64,000 nucleotides of DNA from Bacteriovoracaceae bacterium. Lineage in GTDB: Bacteria > Bdellovibrionota > Bacteriovoracia > Bacteriovoracales > Bacteriovoracaceae. Under the pieces are notes generated by a model, which made no database searches, was not told where the DNA came from, and saw only the letters and a list, made by a program, of their open reading frames with translations. Shown in pieces: positions 6,063 to 51,423 of the stretch. The stretch covers positions 43,451 to 107,450 of the forward strand of contig JBFGZE010000002.1 of assembly GCA_041586955.1 (NCBI GenBank). Direction: 5' to 3'. Position numbers and translations under genes: made by a program. Positions within the stretch are counted from its first letter, which is position 1. Each line of letters opens with the position of its first letter.

Positions 6063-6902
6063 TTAGGGTATAAGAAAAGAGGCAAAAAGTGGATTATGAT
6101 CTGAGCCTCCGTCGGCCTCTTCGACATGAGATGCTGCTAAGGTCATGCCTTTATAGAGAATATGATCTAGTGCACGGCCAAAGTACTTTGTTCTTATGTC
6201 AGGTGAAAAGCGAGCTTGCTTGAGACTTGCTTCTCTTGCCATTTTGATTAAGGCCTTTGACCGATTGGCCCGCCAAGTATTAAAATCACCTGCAAAAATA
6301 ATAGGTCCGGTATGTTTTTTGACCTTGTCAAAAAGAATTACCATTTGTGCTTTCCACGAATCAAATTTAACAAAGTTAATAGCATGAACATTAATTACTA
6401 ATAATTTTTGCGCTCTATTTTTTAAAGAGTAGGTACTTAAAAGTGCCATTTTTGGTGTTTTGAAAATTGGTTCAGTGACGGGCGCGCGCAATGGTATCAC
6501 TTGTGCGCTCTTCGCCTTTGCAGCGGTTGCGACCCCTGTTTTTTCATTCGTGTCTTCAAAAGTAAAGGAGTAGGCAAAAAAGGTTTCAAAATTACGATCG
6601 CTGAAAAGTTCATAAAAAGATGGGGTCGTGATTGTTTCTTGTAAAATGAGAATGTTTTGTTGACCTACAATTTGTTGGTATTTAGAGTTAAAGTTATCGC
6701 CCTCCATCTTATAGATATTCCACACCATTATATTAAGATTAAGTGGTAAAGATTTATTTGAGGTGTTGCTAACCCTCTCCAAGCTATTGGCGATACTGGG
6801 GACTTTAATTCGATAGATACTACGTTCACCCGCCGTAGTTGTAAGGGTAAAAATCAATAATAAAATAGAAAACAGTGATAAATTAATTTTTTTCATATTC
6901 AT
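6063..6902 (-). CDS. Secreted endonuclease/exonuclease/phosphatase (EEP, YafD-like)
   Basis: Signal peptide; WNIYK, LQE, NVHAINF, GDFNTW, LDHI and SDHNP motifs. Confidence 0.88.
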   Translation of the reverse strand: MNMKKINLSLFSILLLIFTLTTTAGERSIYRIKVPSIANSLERVSNTSNKSLPLNLNIMVWNIYKMEGDNFNSKYQQIVGQQNILILQETITTPSFYELFSDRNFETFFAYSFTFEDTNEKTGVATAAKAKSAQVIPLRAPVTEPIFKTPKMALLSTYSLKNRAQKLLVINVHAINFVKFDSWKAQMVILFDKVKKHTGPIIFAGDFNTWRANRSKALIKMAREASLKQARFSPDIRTKYFGRALDHILYKGMTLAASHVEEADGGSDHNPLFASFLIP

Positions 6903-8135: not shown

Positions 8136-8960
8136 TTGAACCCCAAGCAATACAATGATAGAAAGTATCAAAAAATGGTACTTTTTATGAAAAATGGCCC
8201 CACTTATTCATTATTAATTAAAGAACTCAAGAACATTCTCAAGAAGAAAGGGATTAAATACTCCCAATTGGCCGACCAGCTAAAGATGAGCGAATCTTCT
8301 GTAAAACGCTTGATGACGGCCGTTGATGGCCCGTTCTCTAAAATTGAAGCGATCTGTGAAGTGGCCGGCCTCTCATTTTTTGATTTAGTGGCCTTCTGTA
8401 AAGAAGAGAGGGCCATTAATTTTGTTTTGACGGCAGAACAAGAACGGTTCTTTTCCCATAACACCCATTATTTTTATTTTTTCCACCTTTTGCATGAAGA
8501 GAACTTCACCATTAAGCAAATCATGGAACGTTATCAGCTGAATCAACATTCTATTTCGCAATATCTAAAAAAATTAGAAGAATTAGGGCTTCTTGAGCGC
8601 CATCCGGGCGATAAGGTTAAAATTTTAGGTGAGGGTCGTATTACCTTTTCTGAAATTAATGATTTGGGCCGCTCGCTAATCAAATCATCGATGCATAATT
8701 TTGCAGAAGTGACATCCAACTTTGATGAACTAAAACGGAAGGCCGCAGGGAAAGAGCTGCATTTTGCTTTTGGTGAATATTATATGCGCCATGAAACTGC
8801 CGATCATTTTATCCAAGATTTGCGGAAAATTGAGGCGCAAATGGATGTGGCCAGCAGTCGAGAGGTTAAAGTCTATGAACCCCACGAACTGGATTTCTAT
8901 ACAAGTGTGGTGAGTTTTCTTCCTATGCGTTTCTATTATGAAGATTTACCGAATCTTTAA
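8136..8960 (+). CDS. Cro/C1-type HTH transcriptional regulator with a second HTH-like region
   Basis: LKKKGIKYSQLADQLKMSESSVKRL; later YLKKLEELGLLE. Start is probably a later ATG. Confidence 0.8.
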   Translation: MNPKQYNDRKYQKMVLFMKNGPTYSLLIKELKNILKKKGIKYSQLADQLKMSESSVKRLMTAVDGPFSKIEAICEVAGLSFFDLVAFCKEERAINFVLTAEQERFFSHNTHYFYFFHLLHEENFTIKQIMERYQLNQHSISQYLKKLEELGLLERHPGDKVKILGEGRITFSEINDLGRSLIKSSMHNFAEVTSNFDELKRKAAGKELHFAFGEYYMRHETADHFIQDLRKIEAQMDVASSREVKVYEPHELDFYTSVVSFLPMRFYYEDLPNL

Positions 8961-9110
8961 CTATGAGCGTTATTTCTTGCGTTATTTTAACAAGTTAAAT
9001 CGATTGAACAATAATGGTTTGACGCAATTTTTACAAAAGTTGGGTGGTTTAATTGACGGAATTGAATAGGTAACCTAAAGAGTTCTTAACAATAAATATC
9101 GAGGAATTTT

Positions 9111-10487
9111 ATGAACTTAGCTGGCGCCTTACTTGTCTTCCTTTTGGCCACCCCCATTGTACTGGCCAATAATAACAATATTATTCAATCAACTGATAAA
9201 AGTTTTTATATTGAAAAGTTTTATTATGAAGATTTTGTTTATTCACAAGGAAAAAAAACGGAATTAGGTGATCAAGTTGAGTTGGACGTCGCTTTTCGGT
9301 ATCAATATAGCAGCTCTACTTTTGCACGCATTCGCTTTGAAACAATACCTGAAGACAATCGCTTTAATAATAAAACGTCTAAGTTTGAGTTATTGGCCGG
9401 TCACCAATATGAAAATCTTAACTTTCAATTAGACCTGGAATTGGATGTCAATAATAGTTCAAGTGGAGGTCAAACACTTGGTCTCGATCTTGATAGTGAA
9501 TATACTCGTCTTCAATGGCAATTGAATAATAAAGTGTCCCTTTCATTCTACCCCTTTAATTTTGATGGAGAAGTTGGTCACAAATTCAATACATGGGACG
9601 TAACACGAATTAATTATATTAGTGGTGCCCCCTCGACCGTTTCAGAAACCCAAGGGACAAATAGTATTGTCAATAAAACGATTCCTGGCCTGGAATTAAA
9701 ATATCAATTTAATGACAGTTGGTCGGCCAATGTCGGACTTGGTGTAGCATCCTATTTATATCCAGCTAATGGTGACTTCGACATCCAAAATTTTCCAACT
9801 GCTACTCGCTGGGAAAGAAAGGAAGACTTTGGCCATAAACTTGGTGTTCAATACAAAAAAGAAAACCTAAAGTTGTCGGTTGATTACGTGGGCCATAGCG
9901 AGCCAAAAGAAACAGGAGCGCTTTTGGAAAATGCTTGGTCGGTCTATGGCATCGGTCGAACGTCACAGGTGTTAATTGAAGGTGAGTTTACGTTTACGAA
10001 AAACGGAAAGGAGGCCTGGGATATTGCCCGCGGGAGCGATTGGTTTAATAATACGACTACACCATTTATGCCTATTTATGCTGATTACGATGGGAATAGA
10101 CAAAATTGGCTAGGCCAAAGTGATTATGCCATAAGCACTAAAATTGGATACGAATGGTCTAAATCTACAACTCCTTATGTCACCCTTCGCTATCAAGGAA
10201 AAAACTTTATTTTTAGAGATGAAGAGTCGGCCCACCGTTTAAGAACCGCCGATGAGTCTCAATCTCATGGTGGTCTGATTCGCACGGGCCTTGGGACTTA
10301 TTTAAAATATGGAAACTTTACGGTCAATCCAGAATTAGAATATCGTAATGCAAAAAATCCAGTTTTCACCAACGCAGCTGATGAGGTTAGTAGTCAGCGG
10401 CTTCTGGGTAACTTCAAAAAGACAGATTACTTAATTACTTTATTTTTAACCTATGATTTCGATGGTCGAATGATCTTTGCTCCTTAG
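9111..10487 (+). CDS. Putative outer-membrane beta-barrel protein
   Basis: Sec signal peptide, many alternating aromatic beta-strands, near-terminal LFLTYDF strand; RBS GAGGA. Confidence 0.7.
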   Translation: MNLAGALLVFLLATPIVLANNNNIIQSTDKSFYIEKFYYEDFVYSQGKKTELGDQVELDVAFRYQYSSSTFARIRFETIPEDNRFNNKTSKFELLAGHQYENLNFQLDLELDVNNSSSGGQTLGLDLDSEYTRLQWQLNNKVSLSFYPFNFDGEVGHKFNTWDVTRINYISGAPSTVSETQGTNSIVNKTIPGLELKYQFNDSWSANVGLGVASYLYPANGDFDIQNFPTATRWERKEDFGHKLGVQYKKENLKLSVDYVGHSEPKETGALLENAWSVYGIGRTSQVLIEGEFTFTKNGKEAWDIARGSDWFNNTTTPFMPIYADYDGNRQNWLGQSDYAISTKIGYEWSKSTTPYVTLRYQGKNFIFRDEESAHRLRTADESQSHGGLIRTGLGTYLKYGNFTVNPELEYRNAKNPVFTNAADEVSSQRLLGNFKKTDYLITLFLTYDFDGRMIFAP

Positions 10488-10504
10488 TGGGCCAAGGGGA
10501 TAAT

Positions 10505-12040
10505 GTGAATAGATTGATAAATATTTTGACACTTCTTTTTCTTCTTACCGCCCTAAGTGCTTGTGGAGATAAAAGTGAAACCTTAATTAAGGATATCAAT
10601 TCTAAAAAGGTGGAAGAGGCCATTTCTAAAATGGATGAAATTCAAACATCTATAGCAGAAGGCCAATTATTAGGGCGTACGAGTCGCAATGATAAAAGAA
10701 AAATTAATGAGACCCTGAAACAATTAAAAATCAATTTGATGGCACTCGACCTTAACCCATTAGACCATAAGGCCCTTGAGAGAATAGTCCGGCATTTGCG
10801 GTTTTTTGAAACGAAGATATTATCAGAAAGAGATATTCCACGGTTAAACGCCTTAGTCGATATCGTTCGCCAAGAGGCATCCCGTTATGCAGGTCTTCAG
10901 GGCACTAGTTTGGCGCAGGTCCCATGGCCTTTATATAATTATGGATTTTCGCGCGGGATTGAACCCTTTGGAGTTTATTCAGATGGGAATAATTGGGAGC
11001 GCCGCTATTCACAAGATAGATCCTCAGCAAATGTCAGAAATGGAGGCAGAGATGGAGAGTCTTGGCTATTGACCCCCACATTTAACCTTGCTGGTGTTGA
11101 TAACCCTATTCTTAGTATTAAGCATCTTCTCATGATTGATGATAATAATCGCAGTCGAGTTCCTTTAAATATGGGGAAAATCCTTAGTGATGCCTTTAAA
11201 GTTATGGTCACAACTAACTTTAAGGAGGGGCCACAAAGTCTCGACAATAATTTATGGGAGGAGCTAACTTTAGATCGTCTTCCAAGTGGTAGAGATTTTC
11301 ATAGTCTAACCTCTTCAGTATCATTAAAAAAATACCGCGGGCATAATGTCACGATTGCCTTTATTCTAAAAACAAATACCAAAGAAATTGGTAATCATTT
11401 TTTGACTTGGCAAATAGAGCGACTGCGAATATTAGGCGCCGCCGATAAAATGACTTACTCCCCCCGTCAAAAACCTTTTAACCCTGATGATGAAGATGAT
11501 CTTGGTAAAGAAGTTCTACATTGGTCTTTTCGAGAGAAAGGAATGGGCAACCTCCAGCAGACGGCCTTGTCGGGTACTCCTGGAGCATTTTCCTATAATG
11601 AGGGCCGAGGTTGTGCCATTATTAGTCCTAATCGAGAGAAGCTATTCGGAAAACAATTATTATATACCGGAATTTTGGATTTAACGGTGGTTAAAGAAGC
11701 TGCCATGCGTGTTCATCAGACGATTAATTTTTATACGGAAGAGGCCAAAAAACATGATTTGATTAGTATTAAGATCGCTGAAGTCGTCGAAGGGGTAGAG
11801 GTTAGTGATCTTAATTGGTTAGAAATACCATTTAAGAGAACTCCCGATGGAAGCGGATGGAATAGCATGAAGTCCGAATGGGTCAAGTTGCCAACTGCCC
11901 TCCAAGGAAAAAAGGTACGGCTTGGGTTCTTTTATGAATCATTGAAGCAAACCTCTGATGATGGCAAAGTCACTGATTTTTTTCCCGCATGGCAAATTTA
12001 TGACTTTTGGGTCAATGATTTAACTGGAGTCGAATTGTGA
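10505..12040 (+). CDS. Lipoprotein with helical stalk and two repeated beta-sandwich (DUF5017/cleaved-adhesin-like) domains
   Basis: GTG at 10505 after AAGGGGA; lipobox LSAC; repeats ESWLLTPTFNL...VTIAF...WQIE and LLYTGILDL...VRLGFFY...WQIYD. Confidence 0.65.
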   Translation: MNRLINILTLLFLLTALSACGDKSETLIKDINSKKVEEAISKMDEIQTSIAEGQLLGRTSRNDKRKINETLKQLKINLMALDLNPLDHKALERIVRHLRFFETKILSERDIPRLNALVDIVRQEASRYAGLQGTSLAQVPWPLYNYGFSRGIEPFGVYSDGNNWERRYSQDRSSANVRNGGRDGESWLLTPTFNLAGVDNPILSIKHLLMIDDNNRSRVPLNMGKILSDAFKVMVTTNFKEGPQSLDNNLWEELTLDRLPSGRDFHSLTSSVSLKKYRGHNVTIAFILKTNTKEIGNHFLTWQIERLRILGAADKMTYSPRQKPFNPDDEDDLGKEVLHWSFREKGMGNLQQTALSGTPGAFSYNEGRGCAIISPNREKLFGKQLLYTGILDLTVVKEAAMRVHQTINFYTEEAKKHDLISIKIAEVVEGVEVSDLNWLEIPFKRTPDGSGWNSMKSEWVKLPTALQGKKVRLGFFYESLKQTSDDGKVTDFFPAWQIYDFWVNDLTGVEL

Positions 12041-14535
12041 GAAAGGTTTTCTTTTTAGGACTTTTACTCCTGATTGGCTGTGGTAAAGAATCCTATCGTT
12101 TGGACAATGGGGAATACCTCGTTTCTGCCGATAAAAAATATGAAGGTTCAACCACAGCTGGAAACCTAATTACGACCGCAATCAAAGAAGTCCATCAATT
12201 GGACATGGTTTTTTACCCAAGTGATTTTCTTAATGAGTCACTTAATGGATTGGTTCGTCCCAATCTGACTCCTCGTGAAATTACTGAACTGAAAAAGTTA
12301 TTTCCTACTGCCACCAAAGATCAATTCATGGTTGGTACGATGAAAGGGAAAGATATAAAGAAGTTTGTTATCGGCCGCTCAAATGATACTTATCGTGCCG
12401 ATTTGCAGGTGGCGGGGCTTCGCTATCATATTCACACTGTCGGTGGAGTTAGGCAATATGCCTATTTTAATAGGCCTGAAGGTTTAGAGTTTGAGGACAA
12501 TGAGTATTATAATGTGGCCATTTCTCATTATTTTTATTTTTCAGGTCAAACTTTTCCCTCCTATAAGTACCGCAATAGCTTTAGTCATTCATTTAATTTT
12601 TCCTCGACCATTATATCGGCACGCGATTCATTAGAAACTTATTTGAAGACGATTAAAAATCTTCCCTATCTCAAAGAAATTCGCGCTAAATATACAAGCT
12701 TTATTAAAGGTGATGCCGGAGCTGTCAAAATCTATCAGATCCAAGGAGAATCACATCGCAGCCCCTTATTAGGGAAGAGAGTCACGACAAGTGGTATTGT
12801 GACCGCTTTTGGTTCAGTGGATTGGTACCCTGGTGGAATGGATATTATCATTCAAGATAAAAATGGGGATGGTAATGACCATACTTCTGATGCCGTACAT
12901 ATTCACGTTGATAATAAGGCCTTAAATATTCAATTAGGAGATCATATCTCCGTTACCGGAGTGGTTTATGAAGAAATGATGGGAAATGGGCTTGGTAAGA
13001 CTTCCATCAGAGAAGTGATTAAACTAAGCACAATTTCTTCAGGCAATGCCTTACCGGCACCAGTCATTTTGGGGATGCGAGGCAGGCCTATCCCGGATTT
13101 TAAAATTTCATCTTTTATAGGAGATTTGAATTTCAAACCCAACCTTTCACTTTTTGAAGGGATTGATTTTTACGAATCATTAGAGGGCATGCGAATTGAA
13201 ATTAATAATCCCGCGGTTGTCGGATTTCGTGGTGGTAAAGAAGAATATGAAGGGCAACGGCCAAAAGGTCATTTAAGCCTCTATCTGGTACCCGATTCAA
13301 AAGCTCGCCACGATGGACGTACATTGCCTGGCGGGATAATCATCGGTGAGAAAGGTGAGGATTACAATCCTGAAATTATTCAATTATCAGCTAGTCATTT
13401 AAGCCGAGGGATTAATACTGAAACGATTTTTAATATTGGTGATATTTTAGAGGGTGCTATTGTTGGCAATATGAGCTTTGAGAAAAATATTTTCGGTGGT
13501 GGTGATTATACGATGGTCCTACCTCTGGCACAAAAGGCCTTGGGCCATGAATTTAAGGGGCGCGGTCTTGTTCCTCTCTCTAGTCGACCTAAGACGGCCC
13601 TCGTCAGCTCAAAAGATCATCTGACGGTGGCCAGTTTTAATGTGGAAAACTTGGCCGGGAACCAACCTCTTCGTATCAAGGAGATTGGGCGTTCGATTAA
13701 AACTAATTTGAAATGTCCAGATATCGTCAACTTAGTCGAGATTCAGGATAATAATGGTGTTTCTTTAAATGGTGGCCCTGATGCTCAATTAACTCTTGAA
13801 AAATTAATTAAAAAAATCAAATGTGGTGTCAATGTAGAGTATAAATCAATCAATATCGATCCTCTTAATCATAGTGAAGGGGGCCAGCCCGGCGGAAATA
13901 TTCGCGTTTCGATGATTTATAACGCCAAACGCGTGGGTTTTTCTCCGAGAGGGCAATCAGGGGCACTGGAGGAAACTCGTGTCGGCCCTGATGGAAGTCT
14001 TAATATCAACCCTGGACGAGTTTTCCCTGGTAGTGATGCTTTTAATCGCACACGAAAAAGCCTTGTCGTAGAGTTTACATTTAAAGGTGAAAAAGTACTT
14101 CTTATTGGAAATCATTTTAATTCTAAATTAGGAGACACTAGTTTTTGGTCAGCACAACAGCCACCTCGCTCACGGTCTGAAGTAAGACGTGTACCTGTTG
14201 CCGAAAAGGTTAATGAATTCGTTCGTATCTTAAATCAACGGAACCCGAAGGCGAATATTATTGTGCTTGGAGACTTCAATGCCCTTGTTCACGAGGCATC
14301 GATGAGGGTTTTGGCCGGTAATGAACTTTATAATTTGATGACTTATAAGAACCTTGTTGATCCTAAGGATCGCTATACCACTAATCATAATGGAAATTCC
14401 CAGCCTCTGGATTATATCTTTGTGAATGGTAATTTAATTAATAAGTCACCAGAATTTGAAATCCTGCATATTAATTCCGATTTTATGGGGCGATTATCAG
14501 ATCATGACCCAATTATTGGGCGATTTAAATTTTAA
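12037..14535 (+). CDS. Extracellular lipoprotein nuclease: 5'-nucleotidase C-terminal-like domain + YhcR-type OB fold + EEP domain
   Basis: Lipobox LIGC; GNLITTA and LQVAGLRY; IYQIQG...SPLLGKRV; ESLEGMR; SFNVENL, EIQD, NHFNSK, GDFN, LDYI, SDHDP. Confidence 0.85.
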   Translation: MRKVFFLGLLLLIGCGKESYRLDNGEYLVSADKKYEGSTTAGNLITTAIKEVHQLDMVFYPSDFLNESLNGLVRPNLTPREITELKKLFPTATKDQFMVGTMKGKDIKKFVIGRSNDTYRADLQVAGLRYHIHTVGGVRQYAYFNRPEGLEFEDNEYYNVAISHYFYFSGQTFPSYKYRNSFSHSFNFSSTIISARDSLETYLKTIKNLPYLKEIRAKYTSFIKGDAGAVKIYQIQGESHRSPLLGKRVTTSGIVTAFGSVDWYPGGMDIIIQDKNGDGNDHTSDAVHIHVDNKALNIQLGDHISVTGVVYEEMMGNGLGKTSIREVIKLSTISSGNALPAPVILGMRGRPIPDFKISSFIGDLNFKPNLSLFEGIDFYESLEGMRIEINNPAVVGFRGGKEEYEGQRPKGHLSLYLVPDSKARHDGRTLPGGIIIGEKGEDYNPEIIQLSASHLSRGINTETIFNIGDILEGAIVGNMSFEKNIFGGGDYTMVLPLAQKALGHEFKGRGLVPLSSRPKTALVSSKDHLTVASFNVENLAGNQPLRIKEIGRSIKTNLKCPDIVNLVEIQDNNGVSLNGGPDAQLTLEKLIKKIKCGVNVEYKSINIDPLNHSEGGQPGGNIRVSMIYNAKRVGFSPRGQSGALEETRVGPDGSLNINPGRVFPGSDAFNRTRKSLVVEFTFKGEKVLLIGNHFNSKLGDTSFWSAQQPPRSRSEVRRVPVAEKVNEFVRILNQRNPKANIIVLGDFNALVHEASMRVLAGNELYNLMTYKNLVDPKDRYTTNHNGNSQPLDYIFVNGNLINKSPEFEILHINSDFMGRLSDHDPIIGRFKF

Positions 14536-14553
14536 GAATGTATATTTTATATC

Positions 14554-14581
14554 AAAAAAAAGGCCCTCAAAAGAGGGCCTT
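14554..14581 (-). terminator. Intrinsic terminator between the convergent nuclease and FKBP genes
   Basis: AAGGCCCTC-AAAA-GAGGGCCTT hairpin with an A-tract on the left (U-tail on the minus strand). Confidence 0.8.
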
Positions 14582-14586
14582 CGTCA

Positions 14587-15511: not shown

Positions 15512-16135
15512 ATGGATTCATCATTAATTCAAAATCTTTTTAATTTTATTACTAATAATATTTTTATCATTATCTATGTTTTTGCCGCGATTGAGATATA
15601 CCTGGTCATCAATATCTTTTTTATGATGAAAAAGCATGAATTGGTTCTTACGGATGTATCAGATAATCTTTTAAAAGGATTTAGCGACGCCCCTGACCGT
15701 GACTCGAACCAGACTACTCATGAACGAATTGAAGCGGCCTTGGACTTTATCCACTATAAAATTTCAATGGGATCAGAATATAAAAAGGAATTTGTCGCCA
15801 ATGCGGGCAATATTAGCAAACGAGCATTTTATGGCCGGCATTATAAAATTGAAATATTTGCCAGTGTGATGTCGACATTAGTTCAGGTTTTTCCTCTTCT
15901 TGGAATTTTGGGAACAATTTTGGCGATCGCTCAAACGGCTTTTCAATCGGGCGGGCAAATTGATGTCTCTTCGCTGTCCAATGCTTTTGTCTTGGCGATG
16001 GATACCACCATACTTGGTATTACCTTTTCCATTATTTTTATGGTCATTGAGAGTACTTTTCAGCCAAAAATTGAAAGGGTGATCAATGAAAGTTCTGATT
16101 ACCGAGACCTGGTCTCTAAAATCAATTTATCTTAA
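15512..16135 (+). CDS. MotA/TolQ/ExbB proton-channel family protein
   Basis: FPLLGILGTI and AMDTTILG TM motifs; three TM segments. Confidence 0.85.
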   Translation: MDSSLIQNLFNFITNNIFIIIYVFAAIEIYLVINIFFMMKKHELVLTDVSDNLLKGFSDAPDRDSNQTTHERIEAALDFIHYKISMGSEYKKEFVANAGNISKRAFYGRHYKIEIFASVMSTLVQVFPLLGILGTILAIAQTAFQSGGQIDVSSLSNAFVLAMDTTILGITFSIIFMVIESTFQPKIERVINESSDYRDLVSKINLS

Positions 16136-16148
16136 GGATTAAGAGATA

Positions 16149-16733
16149 ATGAGACCTACTAGAGTTTATAAAAAAACAAAAAAAACCACAGTCCAACTAA
16201 CATCTTTATTAGATCTCCTATTTGTGATGATTTTTGTCTCGTTAATTCAGCAAAAATCTGCGGCACCTATCAAAGTAGAAACCGTCGCTGAAAAAAAAGT
16301 GGTGGAACAAGAAGTTCCACCCGTTGCTAAGCCGATCATTAAACCAACTGCAAAACCTATCTCCACTCCAGCACCTATTAAACCGACTCGCTATACAGTG
16401 CGTGCGACATTTAATTTTTATGGCACGCCCAATAATAAGGCCTTACCTCGTGGTTCTTATGTCATGCAAGGGCAATTTGATGAGAAGACCAGGAAATTGC
16501 AATTGGGAGGGAGTCACTGGATTGAGAGACCGAAGCATTATGATATGGTTCCGCTTTCAGGAGAAATTAATACTGCTAATAACGAATTTAGAGGCCGTAT
16601 CGAATTTCAAGGTTGCCAGGAATTTACATTGAAAAAAGTTGCTCAATCTGGTGACAAGGCCATTAGTGGATCCTGGAAGGGAGAGTACTCCTGTTCGCAA
16701 GGCCCTACTGGATTGACTCTAACGATTGAATAA
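16149..16733 (+). CDS. ExbD-like TM anchor + Pro-rich linker + atypical beta-rich domain
   Basis: LTSLLDLLFVMIF (conserved Asp), PPVAKPIIKPTAKPISTPAPIKP, Cys-containing beta domain. Confidence 0.65.
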   Translation: MRPTRVYKKTKKTTVQLTSLLDLLFVMIFVSLIQQKSAAPIKVETVAEKKVVEQEVPPVAKPIIKPTAKPISTPAPIKPTRYTVRATFNFYGTPNNKALPRGSYVMQGQFDEKTRKLQLGGSHWIERPKHYDMVPLSGEINTANNEFRGRIEFQGCQEFTLKKVAQSGDKAISGSWKGEYSCSQGPTGLTLTIE

Positions 16734-23148: not shown

Positions 23149-24027
23149 TTAACTACCTTTAACCTTCTTGTTAGATGGTGTCCGGTATTTTTTGCGAGTC
23201 TCAATTTCCTTCATACGTTCAACAATTAGACCCATTAGGTGTTTACTTGGTACTCTTAAGGACATAATAAAAGTATTATTTTGATCCTTTAATATACTTT
23301 TCGCATTATTTAATTTTCCTAGATGGAATAAAACGAGAGCATAATGATAAGCGATATCTTCACGCTTTTGACCCCGTACATCTATTTTATTAAAATACTT
23401 TTCTGCCAGTGTAAGATTATTTTCAAATAAGGCGATTGTTCCTAGACTGGCGAGAATATCGGGGTCTTTTTGATCGACGTTTAAGATATTTTCAAGGTAC
23501 TGCTTCGCGCTTCTTAAAAGGCCAAATTTAATCTGCAACTGGGCGAGATTGAATTTTGGAGTGAGGGCGGATGGATTGTGGGTGATTGCTTGCTTAAAGG
23601 ATTTTTTCGCTTCAACATAATTTCGCAACTTCATATGGACGAGCCCCATATTATTAGAAATCATTGCCTTCGTTTGACCGCCTGAGGGTCTGGTTAATGC
23701 CATTTGGTAAAAATAAATGGCCTTTGGAAGGCGATGACCTAAATAATAGCAAGTTCCAAGCGCATTCCAATAGGAGGCCATCGTTTCATTGCCATTTAAA
23801 GATCTTTTAAGGATAACTAGGCCCTTGGGAACCTGTCCCCCGTGGCATTTTGCCAAGGCCTTTTCAACCTTGTTTTTGCTCTTTGCGAGTATTGCCAATT
23901 TTTGGTTATTCCAACGTAAATAACTCTCGCTTTTAAGAGCATCGGCAACTATACCTTCACGGCGCTTAATTTGATAACTACCACAGCTCGTTAATAATAA
24001 TAGTAGGACAATGGAGAAATTTCTCAT
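23149..24027 (-). CDS. TPR lipoprotein, GltE-like
   Basis: Lipobox LTSC; TPRs (YWNALGTCY, NNMGLVH, FNLAQL); operon context. Confidence 0.75.
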   Translation of the reverse strand: MRNFSIVLLLLLTSCGSYQIKRREGIVADALKSESYLRWNNQKLAILAKSKNKVEKALAKCHGGQVPKGLVILKRSLNGNETMASYWNALGTCYYLGHRLPKAIYFYQMALTRPSGGQTKAMISNNMGLVHMKLRNYVEAKKSFKQAITHNPSALTPKFNLAQLQIKFGLLRSAKQYLENILNVDQKDPDILASLGTIALFENNLTLAEKYFNKIDVRGQKREDIAYHYALVLFHLGKLNNAKSILKDQNNTFIMSLRVPSKHLMGLIVERMKEIETRKKYRTPSNKKVKGS

Positions 24028-26966
24028 CGTCGTTCTCCTCGTTGATCCATTGTTATGACCAACTTTTTAGCGGGGTATCGATAGTAGCTGCTGTTAACGT
24101 TCTGACGAGTTTTAAGAAAATGATTATTATATATACTCAAAATTTCGTTTTTATCGAGAATGGAAAATGCGGTTTGATGGTATTTATTGACTTGTCCTTT
24201 AAAGTTTTGAGTGAGGCCATTCATTTGGGTTTTGAACGCCACCACATACTCTTTAGGCATTCCCTTAGGAGTAAGGCCATCAATTGCGCTGATTACTTTA
24301 TTATAGGCCGTAATCAGGTGATGATAGGTGCCAACTACAATATTAGGTTCACCACTCTTGATCAATATCTCAGCACGGGAGGTGAATGTTTGAGTATTGG
24401 AAAGAATACGCTCTAACTCGGTATTAAATCTTTTTTCATCAAATTTTGGGCCTGAGGTAAGGGAAGGCGCAAATTGAGTAACATCATGTTTAGAGAAGTT
24501 CTCAAAGTCTAAAATACTGGACATCATAGGGATGCCTTTATTCTTAGAACGCAGTTTTGAAAAAATATTAGTGACTGTCTTTTTTAACCCTTCCTTTTGC
24601 TCCATCACTGTATCCCAATAAATAGCGACCAGGTCAGTGTTAAGCTTATCTCTAAGCTTTGGGTTTTCCTTATTTTGAATAAAGAAGTCAAAATAATCAG
24701 GATATTTCTTATTGACCATAAAATGGGCCATCATTTGCTTGGCAAGGGTTGTCTGAGTTTCTTTTTTGATTTTGCATTGGTTGGCCGTTTGAAGGAGACG
24801 GTTGGCCTCCTTAAAGTTGTTTTCAACTAAATTAATATGAATGGAATGTTGAAAAAACTCCGTCTTTAATTTGAAATCCTTTTGACAAAATTTAGTATAA
24901 AGAGTGGTCGTCAAAAGGGATGATACTTTAAAGTTTTGCAACTGCACCATTCGTTGAGAAATCGTCCAATATTTAGGCATTAATTTAAGGATTTCCTTCT
25001 CCTCAAAATGATGAAGAGATCTGGCCATCCACTGATAAGACAATTTTGTCAGTTTTTGTTCGAGATAAAGGGTACCTATATTATAGGCGGATTGGGCCTT
25101 TACCTTTGCCGGATATTTTGGATGTTTATAAAGCTTAGCATAGCCAGCAATAGCTTCTTTTTTCTTTCCTTGGCTATCAAGCTTTTGATATTCATTAAAA
25201 AGTAGACTGACCAAAACGAGGGTAGCTTTTTCAATATAATCTTTGTCAAAGTTAAGAAAGCCGCTATCTAGCTTGGCAATCCAAGCAGCGAGTTTTGTAA
25301 TATTCTTACTCTTAATATAATTATCAATGACACCAATGAGCATACCGCGCTGGATCTTTTGGTCCTTGGGGTAATTGGCAATATATTTATTAAGAACCTT
25401 TAAAGAATTTTTAACTTTTGTTTTCTTGACATAAATATTAAATAACTTGCGGTAAATGACTTGCGAACGGGGATCTTTTGGCCATAGGTTTAAGTGGGTT
25501 GAATAGCTATAGGTTGTGTAGTAATAGCGCTCTTTTGGGCCCAATTGCTGAATAGCTTCCAAGGAAGCGAGAAGTGCATCCATCGTTTGACGCGCTAGCG
25601 CCAGTTGCTTAAGTTCTTTCCCTTTAACTTCAATAATTGGTTTTTTCTTTAATTTAAGAACTCTTTTCGTAATTTCCATTGAGGTTTTATATTTAGGTAG
25701 GGCATCCTTGAAACGCTTTAAAGAGTAATAGGTTTCCCCTTGGTAAAAGCGATAAAGGTTTTCTCTAGGCCTATCAATTGAAGAGAGTATGTCAAAATAA
25801 CTGATAATTCTATTAAGTCTCTCCTCGGAATAGGTCGCTTCAAACTTATTCACATCCTTTGAGATTTGAACTTGGAGAAATCCGACCATATCTTTCATTT
25901 TTTCAGTGGCCTCAAAAAGCTTCTCTTTATCGAGCTTGGAATTTTGAGAAAGCGTGAGAATGTCCTGTGATGTTGTAAAGTGGTATTCGTAATATTTCAT
26001 ATTGCGATAGATCTCTAATTTCGCTAAATGAACATCTAATTGATTATTTGGTTTTTTATGTTTTTTTGCATTTTGAAGTGCTTCGCCGAGAATAAATTGG
26101 GCCTTTTTAATCTTCCCCTTATCGGCGGTTTTTTTTGCCATTTTGATGAGATACTCAGTAGGGATATTGACATGTTTTAAATAAAAATTTACCCCTTCAT
26201 CAAATCGATCTGCTAAAACGTAAAAAAATCCTATGGCATTAAGGACCTGGTCTTTAACATCAATATATTTTTTTTGATGACTTAATTTAAACGCTGTTCG
26301 CATTGCCCCGATGGCCTTATCTACTTCTTTTGTCTTGAGGTAGCACCAGGACATATTGAGATAATGTTTAGATAACCATTCATCTCTTGTTCTTTTGACG
26401 ATATCTTCGTAATAACCAATGGCCTGCTGGTATTTTTTGTCATTATAATAATGCTCGGCCAATGCTGTTTTAATAAAATGAACAATTTTATCGTAAGGGC
26501 CTGTATGAGAGAGCGCTCTTTTTAAATAATGTTCGGTGCGATTATCCATTCCGTAGTCACGGGAATTGAGCGCCAAGGTATAAAAAATATCGGCATTATA
26601 GCGAAAACGAGGGAATTTTTTGACGATGGTGAGAGCATCTCGTTTTGTTTTTTGGTAAAGAGATAACGTCTCCTTAAAGTACTGCCGCTTGGGGCCAGTG
26701 ACCTTGCCCTTTGCTGCGAGTTCAATGAATTTGATATTCTCTTTTTCACGAATAAGTTTAAGCTTTTCCGACTGCAATTCCACCAAGCGGTAACGCAGTT
26801 TAGGGCCCAGATCTTTCATTTTGCGTATTGTCTTTATTTCTTTTTCAATCATCTTATAAAGTTTTGACCATTTTGCTTTCGCAGCGTTATTCTTCTTTGC
26901 GGCCAAGGTTTGGCCACAAAGAAAAAGCGAAATTAAAATAGTTAAAACTTTAAAAAAATTCATCAA
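24024..26966 (-). CDS. Large periplasmic TPR protein, GltD/AgmU-like
   Basis: Signal peptide, 980 aa helical with TPRs (ALAEHYY, WCYLK, GETYY); operon context. Confidence 0.72.
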   Translation of the reverse strand: MMNFFKVLTILISLFLCGQTLAAKKNNAAKAKWSKLYKMIEKEIKTIRKMKDLGPKLRYRLVELQSEKLKLIREKENIKFIELAAKGKVTGPKRQYFKETLSLYQKTKRDALTIVKKFPRFRYNADIFYTLALNSRDYGMDNRTEHYLKRALSHTGPYDKIVHFIKTALAEHYYNDKKYQQAIGYYEDIVKRTRDEWLSKHYLNMSWCYLKTKEVDKAIGAMRTAFKLSHQKKYIDVKDQVLNAIGFFYVLADRFDEGVNFYLKHVNIPTEYLIKMAKKTADKGKIKKAQFILGEALQNAKKHKKPNNQLDVHLAKLEIYRNMKYYEYHFTTSQDILTLSQNSKLDKEKLFEATEKMKDMVGFLQVQISKDVNKFEATYSEERLNRIISYFDILSSIDRPRENLYRFYQGETYYSLKRFKDALPKYKTSMEITKRVLKLKKKPIIEVKGKELKQLALARQTMDALLASLEAIQQLGPKERYYYTTYSYSTHLNLWPKDPRSQVIYRKLFNIYVKKTKVKNSLKVLNKYIANYPKDQKIQRGMLIGVIDNYIKSKNITKLAAWIAKLDSGFLNFDKDYIEKATLVLVSLLFNEYQKLDSQGKKKEAIAGYAKLYKHPKYPAKVKAQSAYNIGTLYLEQKLTKLSYQWMARSLHHFEEKEILKLMPKYWTISQRMVQLQNFKVSSLLTTTLYTKFCQKDFKLKTEFFQHSIHINLVENNFKEANRLLQTANQCKIKKETQTTLAKQMMAHFMVNKKYPDYFDFFIQNKENPKLRDKLNTDLVAIYWDTVMEQKEGLKKTVTNIFSKLRSKNKGIPMMSSILDFENFSKHDVTQFAPSLTSGPKFDEKRFNTELERILSNTQTFTSRAEILIKSGEPNIVVGTYHHLITAYNKVISAIDGLTPKGMPKEYVVAFKTQMNGLTQNFKGQVNKYHQTAFSILDKNEILSIYNNHFLKTRQNVNSSYYRYPAKKLVITMDQRGERR

Positions 26967-27466
26967 TGATTTCCCTGCACAATAAACTTAAACTGTGGAA
27001 AACCTGCAATGGCCGCAGTATGCATTACTTTTTGCATAACTTCGTAAGGCAAGTTTTGATCTATAACGAGGTTAACGTTTTTATTATAGAGCTCCTTAAT
27101 CTTGCCATCCGCTGAAGGTTTTCGATTAATTGCACCCTTCTTTTTCTCTTCTTCTTTATAGGAAATGAGGCCATCATATAGTGATTCAATTTTTTCGCCT
27201 CCGCCACTCATGACACCTATCGGCTTGTTATTGATAAAAATTTTGCGATTTTTGTTCACTTGGACAATAATGGCGTGATTTCCAAGGGTTTCAGACTTAG
27301 AATTGGGTAAATCTAGGCCTTTTACCACATCGACAGTCAAATCTGAGGCATTATAGCTTTTGAGAAGAAAAACCAACAAAATGACGAGGATATCAAGTAA
27401 TGACGTGATATCTATCTCCATTGGTTCACTCTTTTTACGAATAGATTTAAATTTTTTTTGTCTCAT
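26963..27466 (-). CDS. ExbD/TolR-family protein (AglS-like)
   Basis: DITSLLDILVILLVFLLKSY; DQNLPYEVMQKVMHT. Confidence 0.88.
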   Translation of the reverse strand: MRQKKFKSIRKKSEPMEIDITSLLDILVILLVFLLKSYNASDLTVDVVKGLDLPNSKSETLGNHAIIVQVNKNRKIFINNKPIGVMSGGGEKIESLYDGLISYKEEEKKKGAINRKPSADGKIKELYNKNVNLVIDQNLPYEVMQKVMHTAAIAGFPQFKFIVQGNH

Positions 27467-27475
27467 ATCTCACTC

Positions 27476-27994
27476 CTAAATGAGTGTTTCAAAAATAATT
27501 TGGTTAAAGAGAGTTCGGGTTTGAATCGTTTCACCTTTGTCATTTTTAGCGACAATCATCGCTTCTTCGCGGTTTATTTCTTTAACGGCGTCCATAACTT
27601 TCACAATTTTTTTATATTTGATTCCTGATTTTGGCCTAATAATGACCGAAGACTCACTGACATGTTTTTCTTTTAAACCACGTAATGCTGATTTGATGGC
27701 CGTATAATTATATTCACCTTCTTTATTGAGGTTAATATTTTTATAAACTTTTCCATCAAGACCGGTGCGAATGAGGATTTGGTCTAATTGAACTTCTACC
27801 ACTAAATTGAGAGGATCTTTTTTAGGTGGTTTATCATCACTGACCAATTTTACAGCGGGGGCATCGGACCCTATCTCATGGATATTTAAGAACTGGGCCG
27901 ACATCAATAAGAAAAAAATGAAGATAAAGACCGCATCCAAAATAGGAATAATATTCGGCCTACATACAACTTTTTTCTTTTTAAAGCTTCTCAT
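27476..27994 (-). CDS. ExbD/TolR-family protein (AglQ-like)
   Basis: PNIIPILDAVFIFIFFLL; YKKIVKVMDA. Confidence 0.88.
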   Translation of the reverse strand: MRSFKKKKVVCRPNIIPILDAVFIFIFFLLMSAQFLNIHEIGSDAPAVKLVSDDKPPKKDPLNLVVEVQLDQILIRTGLDGKVYKNINLNKEGEYNYTAIKSALRGLKEKHVSESSVIIRPKSGIKYKKIVKVMDAVKEINREEAMIVAKNDKGETIQTRTLFNQIIFETLI

Positions 27995-28041
27995 GATTTC
28001 CTCACACGTCTCATTTTTTTCAAAAACTGCTTATATTAATC

Positions 28042-28734
28042 TTAAGCGGCATCTGATTTAGTTTGTGGAACAGCAGGTTTTTTTGTTCCTAATAAGTCAA
28101 TCAACTTCACTGCAAATGCTTCGACATCGCCCATGATTTTATCTGACTTACTGGTGAGAATGGCGTGAATAACCATAATACTAATAGCTGAAATGAGGCC
28201 AAGTGCAGTGGTGTTCATCGCCTTTGAAATACCAAGGGCAAGAAGTTTTGCCTTACTCGCGGGGTCGGCCGTAGCGACAGCGGCAAATGATTGAATAAGG
28301 CCGTATATTGTTCCTAGTAATCCAATTAAGGTAGAGACATTGGCAATAAGCCCTAAATAGCCCATACGCTTTTCTACTTTTGGAACGACTTCAAGCATGG
28401 AGGCCTCAACGGCATCTTGTATTTGTTCTTTGGTTTGGTTGGCCCTTTTTAATCCCGATTTCATGACCATGGGGAGTAACGCTTTACTATCTGAGCAGGT
28501 CTGAATGGCGGTTTGCACATCATTTTTTAGAACATGCTTTTTAATATTAGACATTAGGCTAGTGCCGTCCACGTCATAAGAAAACAGAGTTTTAAAACGC
28601 TCTAAGGCGATTGCTAGGCCCATGGCCCAGATAGCGAGTATGATCCACATAAAGATCCCACCCTCGTCCATAAAAATGGCCATCGATTGAATAAATGACG
28701 TGTCTTGTGCAACTTGTGCGATTTCGTTTTCCAT
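28042..28734 (-). CDS. MotA/TolQ/ExbB-family protein (AglR-like)
   Basis: GGIFMW, STLIGLLGTIYGLI, GISKAMNTTALGL. Confidence 0.92.
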   Translation of the reverse strand: MENEIAQVAQDTSFIQSMAIFMDEGGIFMWIILAIWAMGLAIALERFKTLFSYDVDGTSLMSNIKKHVLKNDVQTAIQTCSDSKALLPMVMKSGLKRANQTKEQIQDAVEASMLEVVPKVEKRMGYLGLIANVSTLIGLLGTIYGLIQSFAAVATADPASKAKLLALGISKAMNTTALGLISAISIMVIHAILTSKSDKIMGDVEAFAVKLIDLLGTKKPAVPQTKSDAA

Positions 28735-37236: not shown

Positions 37237-37623
37237 TTAAAGGCCCTGTTCAAGTATATCTCTTTCTGTATTGAGATTGCGCTGGTTGGCCGCTTTAGCA
37301 TCAAACTTATCCCCATAACGGGCCTTCAATTTCTTTAGATTGGTATCCATGATCTGTTCAAAAGGGAGGTCCAGTGCGTCTGCCATTATTGCTAGATACC
37401 AGAAAATATCGCCCATCTCTTCCGCTAAATTAACGCGATCAATGTCTTTACCGTAAAAAATATGCTTTTTAAGGTTGTCGAGAATTTCACCGGCCTCAGT
37501 AGAAAGACCAATACCACTATGAAGTAGCCTTAAAGTCTCATCTTTAGAAACTCGCTCTCCCATGGCGGTGAAATTTGTTGACTCTGTTGTTGTCGCGCCA
37601 TCAATATAAACTCTTGAATCCAT
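37237..37623 (-). CDS. MazG-like nucleoside triphosphate pyrophosphohydrolase
   Basis: GLSTEAGEI, EEMGDIFWY, NLKKLKARY. Confidence 0.88.
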   Translation of the reverse strand: MDSRVYIDGATTTESTNFTAMGERVSKDETLRLLHSGIGLSTEAGEILDNLKKHIFYGKDIDRVNLAEEMGDIFWYLAIMADALDLPFEQIMDTNLKKLKARYGDKFDAKAANQRNLNTERDILEQGL

Positions 37624-48081: not shown

Positions 48082-48996
48082 TTATTTTTTCATCTGCTGT
48101 GCCAATTGTGCCGCCACTTTGGCATTATTTAAAATTAAGGCGATATTACTTTCCAGTGATTTTCCACCAGTTAATTCTTTCACTTTTGCGAGAAGGAAAG
48201 GAGTTATCTCTTTGCCTTTAATTCCTTTTTTTGTGGCCTGGGCCAAGGCCTCATCAATTCCCTTCTCCATGACATTTGGATCGAGACTATTTGCTTGTGG
48301 TACCGGGTTGGTGAGAAGCGCTCCGCCACGATTGGAAATAGTCCATTTGATGGTGAGGGTCTCTGCTACAGACTTTAGATCATTAAAACAATGATCCACC
48401 CGATATTGGCCTTCGCGAGTATAAAAAAGAGGGAGCTTTTTAGTTTGGTAACCCCATACAGGAACCCCTTTTGTTTCGAGATATTCTAGAGTTTTGGGGA
48501 CATCGAGAATGGCCTTAATCCCAGCGCAAATGACACAGACTGGAGTTTGTGCCAATTCTTCAAGATCCGCCGAAATATCAAAATTAAGTTCGGCGCCTCG
48601 ATGGACTCCTCCAATACCGCCCGTAGCGAAAACTTTAATGCCCACAATTTCACAAATCATCATTGTCGCCGCAACCGTCGTGGCACCCATCTTTTTTTGC
48701 GACAAAATGACTGAAAGGTCGCGCCGAGAAACCTTTTCTACTTGAGAAGGGCCCGCCTGTGCTAAGATCTGGATTTGCTTTTCAGACATACCGACTAAAA
48801 CTTTACCATCCATTAGGCATATGGTGGCAGGAGTCGCGCCATTATTGCGCACCATTTGCTCTACCTGCTTAGCGGTTTCATAATTTTGTGGGTAAGGCAT
48901 GCCATGAGAAATAATAGTCGACTCTAAAGCGACAATGGGAAGGTTGTTGGCGAAAGCTTCTTTAACTTCTTGAGAGAAATGGATAAAAGGGAGCAT
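48082..48996 (-). CDS. psuG: Pseudouridine-5'-phosphate glycosidase
   Basis: VALESTIISHGMPYP, KVSRRD, ATTVAAT, FATGGIGGVHRG, DISADL, ITPFLL. Confidence 0.95.
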   Translation of the reverse strand: MLPFIHFSQEVKEAFANNLPIVALESTIISHGMPYPQNYETAKQVEQMVRNNGATPATICLMDGKVLVGMSEKQIQILAQAGPSQVEKVSRRDLSVILSQKKMGATTVAATMMICEIVGIKVFATGGIGGVHRGAELNFDISADLEELAQTPVCVICAGIKAILDVPKTLEYLETKGVPVWGYQTKKLPLFYTREGQYRVDHCFNDLKSVAETLTIKWTISNRGGALLTNPVPQANSLDPNVMEKGIDEALAQATKKGIKGKEITPFLLAKVKELTGGKSLESNIALILNNAKVAAQLAQQMKK

Positions 48997-50797: not shown

Positions 50798-51412
50798 ATG
50801 AATGGATTAAAAAAAGTCTTTTGTATTCCCTTTTGTCTTTTATTAATTCTCGGATTTACGCTTCCAGAAGCCTATGCGGATGATATTCGTCTAGGTGTTC
50901 CTGGATATGGTGGAACAGGCTGTCCGGCCGGTACCGCTTCGGCAACATTAAGTCCTGATCGTAAATCATTAAGTATTTTATTTGATGAATATGTAGTGGC
51001 AGCAGGTGGTAGTTTACCAAGTCGAGTTGGTCGCAAGACTTGTAATATCGCCATACCTGTCCATATTCCCCAAGGCTTTTCCTTATCAATCGTTGATGTC
51101 GATTATCGAGGGTATCTTTTCTTACCTCGTGGCGCGACTGCTCGTTTCAATGTGGAGTATTTTTTCGCTGGTATCAGAGGACCTCGTTATTCAACAAGTT
51201 TTAGAGGGTTTTCTGATCGCAATTATCTCCTCGATAATACCCTTGGCCTGGCCACTTTAGTGTGGTCACGTTGTGGTGATGACGTCAATTTAAGAGTCAA
51301 TTCTAGTATGGTGGTTCTCAATTACAATCGGGCCACTGAGGCGATGGCGACAGTAGATACAGCGGACTTTAAAGCGGGGATTATTTATCGCCTTGCTTGG
51401 AAAAGATGTTAA
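50798..51412 (+). CDS. Secreted DUF4360-family protein
   Basis: Signal peptide; YGGTGCPAGT, LFDEY, RKTCNI, DYRG; RBS AAGGAG. Confidence 0.8.
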   Translation: MNGLKKVFCIPFCLLLILGFTLPEAYADDIRLGVPGYGGTGCPAGTASATLSPDRKSLSILFDEYVVAAGGSLPSRVGRKTCNIAIPVHIPQGFSLSIVDVDYRGYLFLPRGATARFNVEYFFAGIRGPRYSTSFRGFSDRNYLLDNTLGLATLVWSRCGDDVNLRVNSSMVVLNYNRATEAMATVDTADFKAGIIYRLAWKRC

Positions 51413-51423
51413 GGAGCAATCCT

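Follow-up and report, generated by a model that had tools for sequence, protein, structure and literature searches.

Positions 9111-14535 of a 64,000-nucleotide stretch from a Bacteriovoracaceae bacterium (the window; it lies on contig 2 of a 3.46-Mb assembly that is 88% complete) are filled by three co-oriented plus-strand open reading frames (ORFs), here called genes 1, 2 and 3 (Table 1). Sequence comparison and structure modelling give solid grounds for predicting that they encode a dedicated porin-like outer-membrane barrel, an accessory lipoprotein with ligand-binding modules and an envelope-anchored DNase, respectively. Degradation of nucleic acid at the cell envelope is the most likely role of the cassette, and we tentatively favour the view that it is a self-contained outer-membrane scavenging module which would bind nucleic acid, cut it and import the products. 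The original prediction described three tightly coupled genes, and both junctions can be read directly in the sequence: a 17-bp gap (10488-10504) follows the TAG of gene 1, and genes 2 and 3 overlap by GTGA at 12037-12040, the start of gene 3 being the GTG of this overlap. For gene 2 the GTG at 10505, five bases past a Shine-Dalgarno-like AAGGGG run, is the favoured start, and a longer ORF from 10487 is likewise open. These tight junctions make a single transcription unit a solid prediction. Sequencing runs containing the locus comprise three DNA runs of one marine-metagenome study and no RNA run. The cassette had also been described as closed by a terminator. The hairpin is present, but its T-run lies on the minus-strand side only and therefore serves as the terminator of the convergent FKBP-type isomerase gene; read in the direction of the cassette, the hairpin lacks a U-tract.

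The same three genes co-occur in relatives. Scanning one genome per species for barrel relatives yielded 62 loci, all but two of which carry Bdellovibrionota-type titles (Bacteriovoracia, Oligoflexia, 'Bdellovibrionales'); the names on the relatives point to Bacteriovoracaceae/Halobacteriovoraceae. By tblastn, the nuclease lies downstream of the barrel on the same strand in 57 loci, and in the other five the sequence ends at the barrel or within 400 bp past it, so that every one of the 57 loci with room for a nuclease has one. Gene 2-like sequence is found between the two in 52 of the 62 loci (tblastn). A single long ORF of 306-884 amino acids (aa) fills the gap in 48 of these 52 complete cassettes, a length range that matches a common helix bundle followed by one to three jelly rolls, and gene 2-like sequence is still detected by tblastn in the remaining four. 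Nearly all of these middle ORFs have a Cys after a hydrophobic stretch. Within the 19 kb of window sequence around the cassette, no flanking ORF is common to more than two of the 62 loci. In one relative, G009, the barrel, gene 2 and the nuclease are 56%, 24% and 49% identical to those of the window. Furthermore, in an even set of 401 Bdellovibrionota genomes (nuclease threshold E <= 1e-10) the barrel profile and the nuclease match exactly the same 32 genomes. The two genes lie on one contig, 2-4 kb apart, in 31 of them, and in the other a fragmented assembly splits them over two contigs. The window's own family accounts for 21 of these genomes (out of 100), and three other families for 8 of 27, 1 of 53 and 1 of 9. 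No statistic is attached to the co-occurrence, since kin are not independent. The cassette is an accessory, single-copy, self-contained module, and in this sample barrel and nuclease occur only together. Among cultured strains, Bacteriovorax sp. DB6_IX has the whole cassette (L016), and Seq25_V has relatives of the barrel and the nuclease (P0063, P0299). Two individual loci deserve mention. L009, a complete cassette with a barrel 55% identical to gene 1, lies on a 2.0-Mb contig of a record titled Sulfitobacter sp. MAG; the other titled loci are all of Bdellovibrionota type, and this alphaproteobacterial label more probably reflects an error than a transfer. At G363:C4:101602-102909 the barrel gene contains one in-frame TAA next to an intact nuclease gene, and it may be a pseudogene or reflect a sequencing error.

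The predicted product of gene 3 combines a lipobox, a 5'-nucleotidase C-terminal (5'-nucleotidase-C) domain, an OB-fold region and a nuclease domain of the endonuclease/exonuclease/phosphatase (EEP) type. Its sole solved relative by sequence is the DNase SpnA of Streptococcus pyogenes (9SF8/9SF9). One continuous phmmer alignment (E 3.7e-77) joins residues 230-831 of gene 3 to residues 1-562 of the fragment 9sf9_A, which comprises OB3, OB4 and the nuclease domain (PMC13601614). In SpnA, E592 is described as the Mg2+ residue, H716, D767 and D810 as catalytic, R696 and N769 as substrate residues, and D842 is further named (PMC13601614). These correspond in gene 3 to E568 (Mg2+), H693, D746 and D792 (catalysis), R673 and N748 (substrate) and D822, all of which, together with H823, are invariant in 46 of 46 aligned cassette nucleases. 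The lipoprotein nuclease with an intact EEP active site that had been proposed is thus borne out at the level of lipobox and residues. Upstream of this core, 47 of the 48 N-terminal domains compared among cassette nucleases match PF02872. A search of the PDB with the N-terminal domain of gene 3 as a single sequence returned designed Kelch proteins only, and one with a 48-sequence profile of the domain gave a single chance-level hit; neither reached a solved 5'-nucleotidase. The 5'-nucleotidase-C assignment is a Pfam assignment. Neither a metallophosphatase half, nor a lamin-tail domain (Pfam), nor a C-terminal anchor was found in gene 3, which ends 9 residues past an SDHDP motif without a hydrophobic tail. 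A search with residues 1-530 retrieved 372 proteins at E <= 0.001, and among the 120 matches listed all organism names are Bacteriovoracaceae, Halobacteriovoraceae or Bdellovibrionales. Relatives carry source names such as '5'-nucleotidase C-terminal domain-containing protein' or 'predicted extracellular nuclease'; annotation pipelines have therefore already recognised the enzyme class.

Gene 3 also matches the models of the ExeM/NucH family, at scores far below their cut-offs: NF033681 (ExeM/NucH) at E 3e-35 and 122.1 bits versus a cut-off of 300, and NF033680 (the ExeM model) at 50.4 bits versus 1300, over residues 227-314. Judged by these scores, its different N-terminus and its different anchor, it is a distinct sequence subfamily related to SpnA, ExeM and Xds. 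Within the cassette nucleases, one clade (L025, L026, L027, L031, L048; G188, G203, G238, G265, G334, G385, G403) has proteins of 893-1123 aa. Their alignment to gene 3 breaks near residue 500, which indicates that an additional, inserted domain separates the OB region from the EEP domain in these proteins.

Gene 1 opens with a segment resembling a signal peptide, read directly as MNLAGALLVFLLATPIVLA/NNNN with the boundary at VLA/NNNN. It has no Pfam and no NCBIfam match, and 154 relatives were found at E <= 0.001. Neither gene 1 nor any of 31 relatives has a Pfam match to the Plug, TonB_dep_Rec, porin, Omp85 or DUF560 families. The recurrent Pfam hits in the family are confined to weak ones, such as PagL, which 3 of the 31 match at E 0.0017 or worse, and the family profile matches nothing among PDB sequences. 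The AlphaFold2 model, built on a 31-sequence alignment (pLDDT 79.7, pTM 0.81), is nearly all beta from residue 31 to 449, and since the strands begin at residue 31 there is no space for a plug. Foldseek retrieved outer-membrane barrels exclusively, at low TM-scores (0.3-0.44). An independent structure search placed maltoporin at the top (Z 16.4, root-mean-square deviation (rmsd) 4.0, 295 residues aligned), followed by PorB (Z 16.0), OprP (Z 15.5), MOMP (Z 15.2) and Occ/OprD (about Z 15), whereas TonB-dependent receptors reached about Z 10 at most. With the matches at Z 14-16 too close to rank, gene 1 cannot be assigned to any specific porin family. A signal-peptide barrel without an obvious TonB plug, as the original prediction had it, is confirmed as a prediction by the modelled fold, the matches in both structure searches and the lack of a Plug match. 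The longest structural alignments are to 18-strand barrels and DSSP lists 21 strand elements, an odd number from which the exact count is not fixable; the modelled barrel probably has roughly 18-20 strands. The family has 43 invariant columns, the majority of them within long inter-strand loops, for example in 147-166 (PFNFDGEVG; P148-N150-V155-G156) and 362-389 (SAHxLR...SHGG; S373-A374-L377-R378...S385-H386-G387-G388). By the usual topology rule these long conserved loops would face outwards, and such invariance is unusual for a plain diffusion porin. An ESM Atlas search with the barrel returned generic unnamed outer-membrane clusters alone (Spirochaetota, YgjJ, Msp) and was uninformative, and a complex prediction of the barrel with gene 2 scored 0.14 against a mark of 0.32 and was not used either way.

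Gene 2 evolves fast. A word-based homologue search returned only gene 2 itself, which reflects a limit of sensitivity, since exhaustive HMMER searching found 150 relatives at E <= 0.001, 49 of them at E <= 1e-30. The original prediction recognised a lipoprotein with two beta-sandwich repeats, and the AlphaFold2 model (pLDDT 88.3) indeed contains two jelly rolls, preceded by an N-terminal helix bundle that had been omitted. The bundle is kept in one-, two- and three-module relatives, which align from about residue 5 to about residue 320, and jelly roll 2 is missing in short relatives such as the G009 homologue (316 aa, a single module). The nearest structural neighbours of jelly roll 1 are a chondroitinase carbohydrate-binding module (CBM; Z 13.8), ephrin-receptor ligand-binding domains (13.3) and MAM domains (12.9). 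Jelly roll 2 resembles the K1 cleaved-adhesin domain of Kgp (Lys-gingipain; 4itc, Z 12.8, rmsd 3.2, 145 aligned), and both together match a CBM22 tandem (Z 11.3; Foldseek E 8e-11). In sequence, gene 2 approaches the choice-of-anchor J model NF038128 (E 2.4e-6, 27.8 bits versus a cut-off of 30, aa 227-296) and has no Pfam hit to DUF5017 (PF16409) itself. Its relatives match NF038128 in 22 of 30 cases (best 1.3e-22) and PF16409 in 10 of 30 (best 4e-10), so the proposed resemblance to DUF5017 and cleaved-adhesin modules holds at the level of family and fold. A DUF5017 search of the window's own genome gave no match (the control was positive in Bacteroides thetaiotaomicron), and DUF5689 (PF18942) was matched neither in gene 2 nor in the 30 relatives at E <= 0.01. 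The M949_1556 lipoprotein family (NF052645) was rejected as a home for gene 2: the best relative scored 87.9 bits versus a cut-off of 475, and the matches, in 5 of 30 relatives at E <= 0.001, cover profile positions about 286 to 457 only, that is, the shared jelly roll. The helix bundle and jelly roll 1 are basic (isoelectric points 9.6 and 9.5), which may be taken as a weak hint of DNA binding.

Table 1. Predicted features of the cassette and its immediate surroundings (window coordinates)
Feature	Coordinates	Strand	Details
Conserved upstream motif, TTTTTACAAA ... TAATTG	9028..9055	+	83 nt before barrel start
Gene 1, predicted signal-peptide outer-membrane beta-barrel	9111..10487	+	458 aa; porin-like, no plug, no named family
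Gene 2, predicted lipoprotein with helix bundle and two jelly-roll domains	10505..12040	+	511 aa; lipobox LSAC, Cys20
Gene 2, modelled four-helix bundle	10604..10897	+	aa 34-131; helices 34-51, 61-83, 88-103, 111-131
Gene 2, modelled jelly roll 1	10925..11461	+	aa 141-319; choice-of-anchor-J / MAM / CBM-like
Gene 2, modelled jelly roll 2	11507..12019	+	aa 335-505; cleaved-adhesin / CBM-like
Gene 3, predicted lipoprotein nuclease	12037..14535	+	832 aa; lipobox LIGC, Cys15
Gene 3, 5'-nucleotidase C-terminal (substrate-binding) domain	12124..12549	+	aa 30-171; PF02872 E 2.1e-7, 31.6 bits, cut-off 23.6
Gene 3, OB-fold region (SpnA OB3-OB4)	12724..13611	+	aa 230 to about 525; phmmer alignment
Gene 3, EEP (DNase I-like) nuclease domain	13633..14505	+	aa 533-823; PF03372, PF19580; EEP-family Pfam matches overall aa 533-826
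G+C-rich hairpin between convergent gene 3 and FKBP-type isomerase gene	14559..14582	unassigned	10-pair stem

In the scavenging module that we tentatively favour, gene 3 would act as a DNase of SpnA/ExeM/Xds type, lipid-anchored and dependent on Mg2+, that cuts DNA, possibly RNA, beside the cell, its 5'-nucleotidase-C domain and OB folds holding substrate or released nucleotide. Gene 2 would be a lipid-anchored accessory protein whose one to three jelly rolls hold near the enzyme either the polymer or the matrix or prey surface bearing it. Gene 1 would form a plug-less, TonB-independent, porin-like channel dedicated to the enzyme, most likely admitting nucleotides or short oligonucleotides to the periplasm. 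Surface exposure of the two lipoproteins, the ligand of gene 2 and import of the products by the barrel are the parts of this scheme that we infer. In a more demanding version, which is possible but doubtful, barrel, gene 2 and gene 3 would assemble into a single outer-membrane machine: prey or environmental nucleic acid would be captured and cut, and the resulting nucleotides or short oligonucleotides would pass directly through a channel that is TonB-independent and represents a new family.

Several observations weigh against this scheme. The jelly rolls of gene 2 mostly resemble glycan-binding modules (CBM22, CBM4, MAM, ephrin ligand-binding domains) and no DNA-binding fold was found among its structural matches, so that its ligand could be a polysaccharide; indeed, jelly-roll folds of this type are glycan or protein binders in most solved cases. 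Default Lol sorting, established for E. coli, would leave both lipoproteins facing the periplasm. The barrel model has low-confidence loops (82-89, 306-319 and 422-429), and its strand number is not fixed by the DSSP string. The distribution in the 401 genomes is patchy: the cassette was not detected in the other families sampled, several of them large (for example 0 of 57, 0 of 34 and 0 of 20), and it is therefore not a core predation function. Moreover, the related nuclease ExeM is described as residing almost exclusively in the cytoplasmic-membrane fraction and as absent from supernatants (PMC6085458).

The most serious competing explanation, which we regard as rather unlikely overall, assigns the barrel the role of a dedicated translocon, or of an anchor, by which the two lipoproteins reach the cell surface or are kept there, in the style of Slam/type 11 secretion or of LptD-LptE. 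The nuclease would then act on extracellular or prey DNA, in matrix penetration or prey digestion, and the products would enter otherwise. An export or anchor barrel accounts for the obligate pairing of barrel and nuclease, and for the conserved loops, no less well than a barrel importing products does, which is why our confidence in the bind-cut-import scheme is not higher. The co-occurrence in the sampled genomes is perfect, both partners of the barrel are lipoproteins in nearly all loci and would need a surface route, the concentration of invariant columns in long loops fits a protein-docking surface, and the helix bundle of gene 2 stays constant while the number of jelly rolls varies. The barrel itself, however, shows little of a translocon: with strands from residue 31 it lacks a periplasmic domain, no DUF560/Slam, Omp85 or other translocon family is matched by Pfam in the alignment of 31 members, and its nearest folds are diffusion porins. 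Slam combines a DUF560 barrel with a periplasmic TPR region, and gene 1 has neither, by Pfam in the 31 relatives or in the model. We know of no barrel comparable in size and shape that exports lipoproteins, although no search aimed at this was made.

A second possibility, which we consider quite improbable, is a module that faces inwards, in which the lipoproteins sit on the periplasmic leaflet, the barrel admits DNA fragments or oligonucleotides cut by other, secreted nucleases and gene 3 finishes the breakdown. It draws on the residue at position +2 after the lipid-modified Cys, which is mostly S or G rather than D in genes 2 and 3 (40-42 loci) and by the E. coli rule would direct them to the inner leaflet of the outer membrane, and no machinery for export to the surface was recognised among the parts of the cassette. 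The membrane-bound ExeM, not found in supernatants and proposed to act close to the cell, would be in keeping with such an arrangement (PMC6085458). A porin-sized barrel, however, passes small solutes and not polymers, and MAM, CBM and cleaved-adhesin modules are typical of surface or secreted proteins. In addition, D is frequent at +3/+4 (12 of 42 and 17 of 40; patterns CSDK and CGD), an acidic pattern that recalls the lipoprotein export signal of Bacteroidota as quoted in 10.1101/2025.03.18.642099 and may be a weak hint of surface export by analogy, that signal being unproven outside Bacteroidota.

That gene 3 is an EEP phosphodiesterase or phosphatase acting on a non-nucleic-acid substrate of the envelope or the prey (a lipid head group or sugar phosphate), with gene 2 as a glycan binder, would suit the CBM-like modules of gene 2 and an EEP superfamily that includes sphingomyelinases and inositol phosphatases, but is very improbable given that the best and only solved relative is a DNase matched over 600 residues including the OB folds, that the SpnA substrate residues R696 and N769 are kept in 46 of 46 nucleases, that the ExeM/NucH models match and that relatives are named 'predicted extracellular nuclease'.

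The favoured bind-cut-import scheme has precedents in Bacteroidota. The Bacteroidales ddbABCDEF genes encode signal peptidase II-type (lipoprotein) nucleases, an outer-membrane transporter and binding proteins of the same lipoprotein type, and are reported to be needed for DNA depletion (10.1101/2025.03.18.642099). In Riemerella anatipestifer, the related genes RA0C_RS04915/04920, for a protein of the choice-of-anchor-J/DUF5689/DUF5017 superfamily and an outer-membrane protein, are reported to be needed for natural transformation (PMC8459023). As described in these sources, the ddb and Riemerella genes show that lipid-anchored nucleases with a barrel and lipid-anchored binders are a real way of handling external DNA, and the association of such modules with DNA loci in Bacteroidota, to which the original prediction pointed, is in print for the Riemerella protein (PMC8459023), while a DNA-utilisation locus resembling a polymer-utilisation locus is described in 10.1101/2025.03.18.642099. 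In the cassette, as in the Ddb locus, nuclease and non-catalytic protein, both lipid-anchored, are encoded alongside an outer-membrane barrel. The Riemerella partner is annotated with choice-of-anchor J, DUF5689 and DUF5017-superfamily domains, of which choice-of-anchor J and DUF5017 are matched by relatives of gene 2. It differs from the Ddb locus in several respects. Ddb has the TonB-dependent transporter DdbC, whereas the cassette has a plug-less barrel of porin-like fold. Ddb has the DUF5689 partner DdbD, which has no counterpart in gene 2 or its relatives. The cassette nuclease is a 5'-nucleotidase-C/OB/EEP fusion. Finally, Ddb comprises six genes in Bacteroidales and the cassette three in Bdellovibrionota. 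By analogy, the cassette may work like a locus of the Ddb or polymer-utilisation type, yet without its defining TonB-dependent transporter and DUF5689 partner.

Among single nucleases, SpnA shares the OB3-OB4-nuclease core and the named residues with gene 3, and both are tethered to the envelope. SpnA, however, has an LPXTG anchor to the Gram-positive wall and two further N-terminal OB domains, whereas gene 3 has a lipid anchor, a 5'-nucleotidase-C domain and a dedicated barrel and accessory lipoprotein. ExeM of Shewanella, Xds of Vibrio cholerae and NucH of Aeromonas (NF033681/NF033680, COG2374) likewise combine an EEP nuclease with an upstream OB-like region and are cell-associated. To our knowledge, ExeM and Xds have not been described with a dedicated barrel. 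Nucleases of the ExeM type have reported roles in the use of extracellular DNA and in biofilm (PMC6085458; PMC6746945), and ExeM carries an N-terminal lamin-tail domain and a C-terminal GlyGly-CTERM anchor (PMC6085458). Gene 3 stands apart from this group by its scores and by the lack of a lamin-tail match and of a GlyGly-CTERM anchor, in place of which it has the 5'-nucleotidase-C domain and a lipid anchor at its N-terminus. Gene 1 is comparable in size to porins (maltoporin, OprP, OprD/Occ, chitoporin, MOMP) and, like them, models as a barrel without a plug (Z 14-16.4, 256-299 residues aligned). It differs from the OprP/O, OprD, LamB and general porins in lacking Pfam, NCBIfam or PDB-sequence membership, and from porins at large in its strongly conserved inter-strand loops and obligate linkage to two lipoproteins. 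The resemblance in modelled fold only shows how gene 1 may work.

As had been supposed, searching the literature turned up no account of this cassette in predatory bacteria. The nuclease table for HD100 lists only two EEP proteins, both of the cytoplasmic ExoIII type (PMC3593177). New in the present case are the architecture and partners of the nuclease and the unnamed barrel family, whereas the enzyme class is already recognised. Predatory Bdellovibrionota live on prey macromolecules, and Bdellovibrio-like predators reportedly take up intact nucleoside monophosphates, as Rittenberg and Langley in 1975 and Ruby et al. in 1985 are said to have described; we know of no channel identified for the passage of nucleic-acid breakdown products across the outer membrane in predators. 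The cassette is a compact, linked and testable candidate for this outer-membrane step, and since the chemistry of the paired enzyme is known, it provides a handle on the function of the unnamed barrel family. If import takes place, the bind-cut-import logic of a 'polymer-utilisation locus' would have emerged in a phylum other than Bacteroidota, a porin taking the place of the TonB-dependent transporter. If the three proteins act as one machine, they would form a counterpart to the SusCD-like Ddb system that works without energy input, and a candidate outer-membrane route for intact nucleoside monophosphates in Bdellovibrio-like predators. If the barrel instead exposes the lipoproteins, it would represent a new surface-lipoprotein route.

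The cassette is preceded by a conserved sequence element. The 8-mer TTTTACAA occurs in 17 of 59 barrel-gene upstream regions, compared with a maximum of 8 in 20 shuffles, and the aligned instances, in Bacteriovoracaceae-type loci, read GGAATTTTTACAAT-N11-14-AATTGC, also (A/T)ATTGC. The element lies 70-140 nt before the barrel start in the window, L004-L032 and L048, and is retained though the proteins are merely about 50% identical. It could be a candidate promoter of a non-sigma-70 type or an operator.

Neighbouring genes were considered as further parts of the cassette. The upstream helix-turn-helix regulator (8136-8960) was rejected, as it is unlike the upstream gene of G009 and common to only two of the 62 loci. 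The same holds for the ExbB-like pair at 15512-16733 (+), just downstream of the cassette (an ExbB-like gene, then a membrane-protein gene), as an energy source for the barrel: none of the 62 loci shares it and the barrel has no plug. A further 9 kb away, at 23149-28734 (-), lies an ExbB-ExbD-ExbD cluster with long TPR proteins that is not conserved beside the cassette elsewhere. The original prediction also pointed to salvage genes in the window. psuG (48082-48996) and a MazG-like gene (37237-37623) are present, 23-34 kb away, but an ade-like gene was not found, with no match at E <= 1e-6 among the 54 window ORFs scanned; only the three cassette genes are conserved together, and the salvage genes are therefore not part of the module. 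Located 2 kb upstream of the cassette, at 6063-6902 (-), is a gene for a 279-aa EEP-family protein (PF03372, E 5e-12), and an ORF similar to it lies near the cassette in two of the 62 related loci. Finally, two adjacent DUF4360 genes are found at 50798-52173 (+), the second of which matches the start of the profile only.

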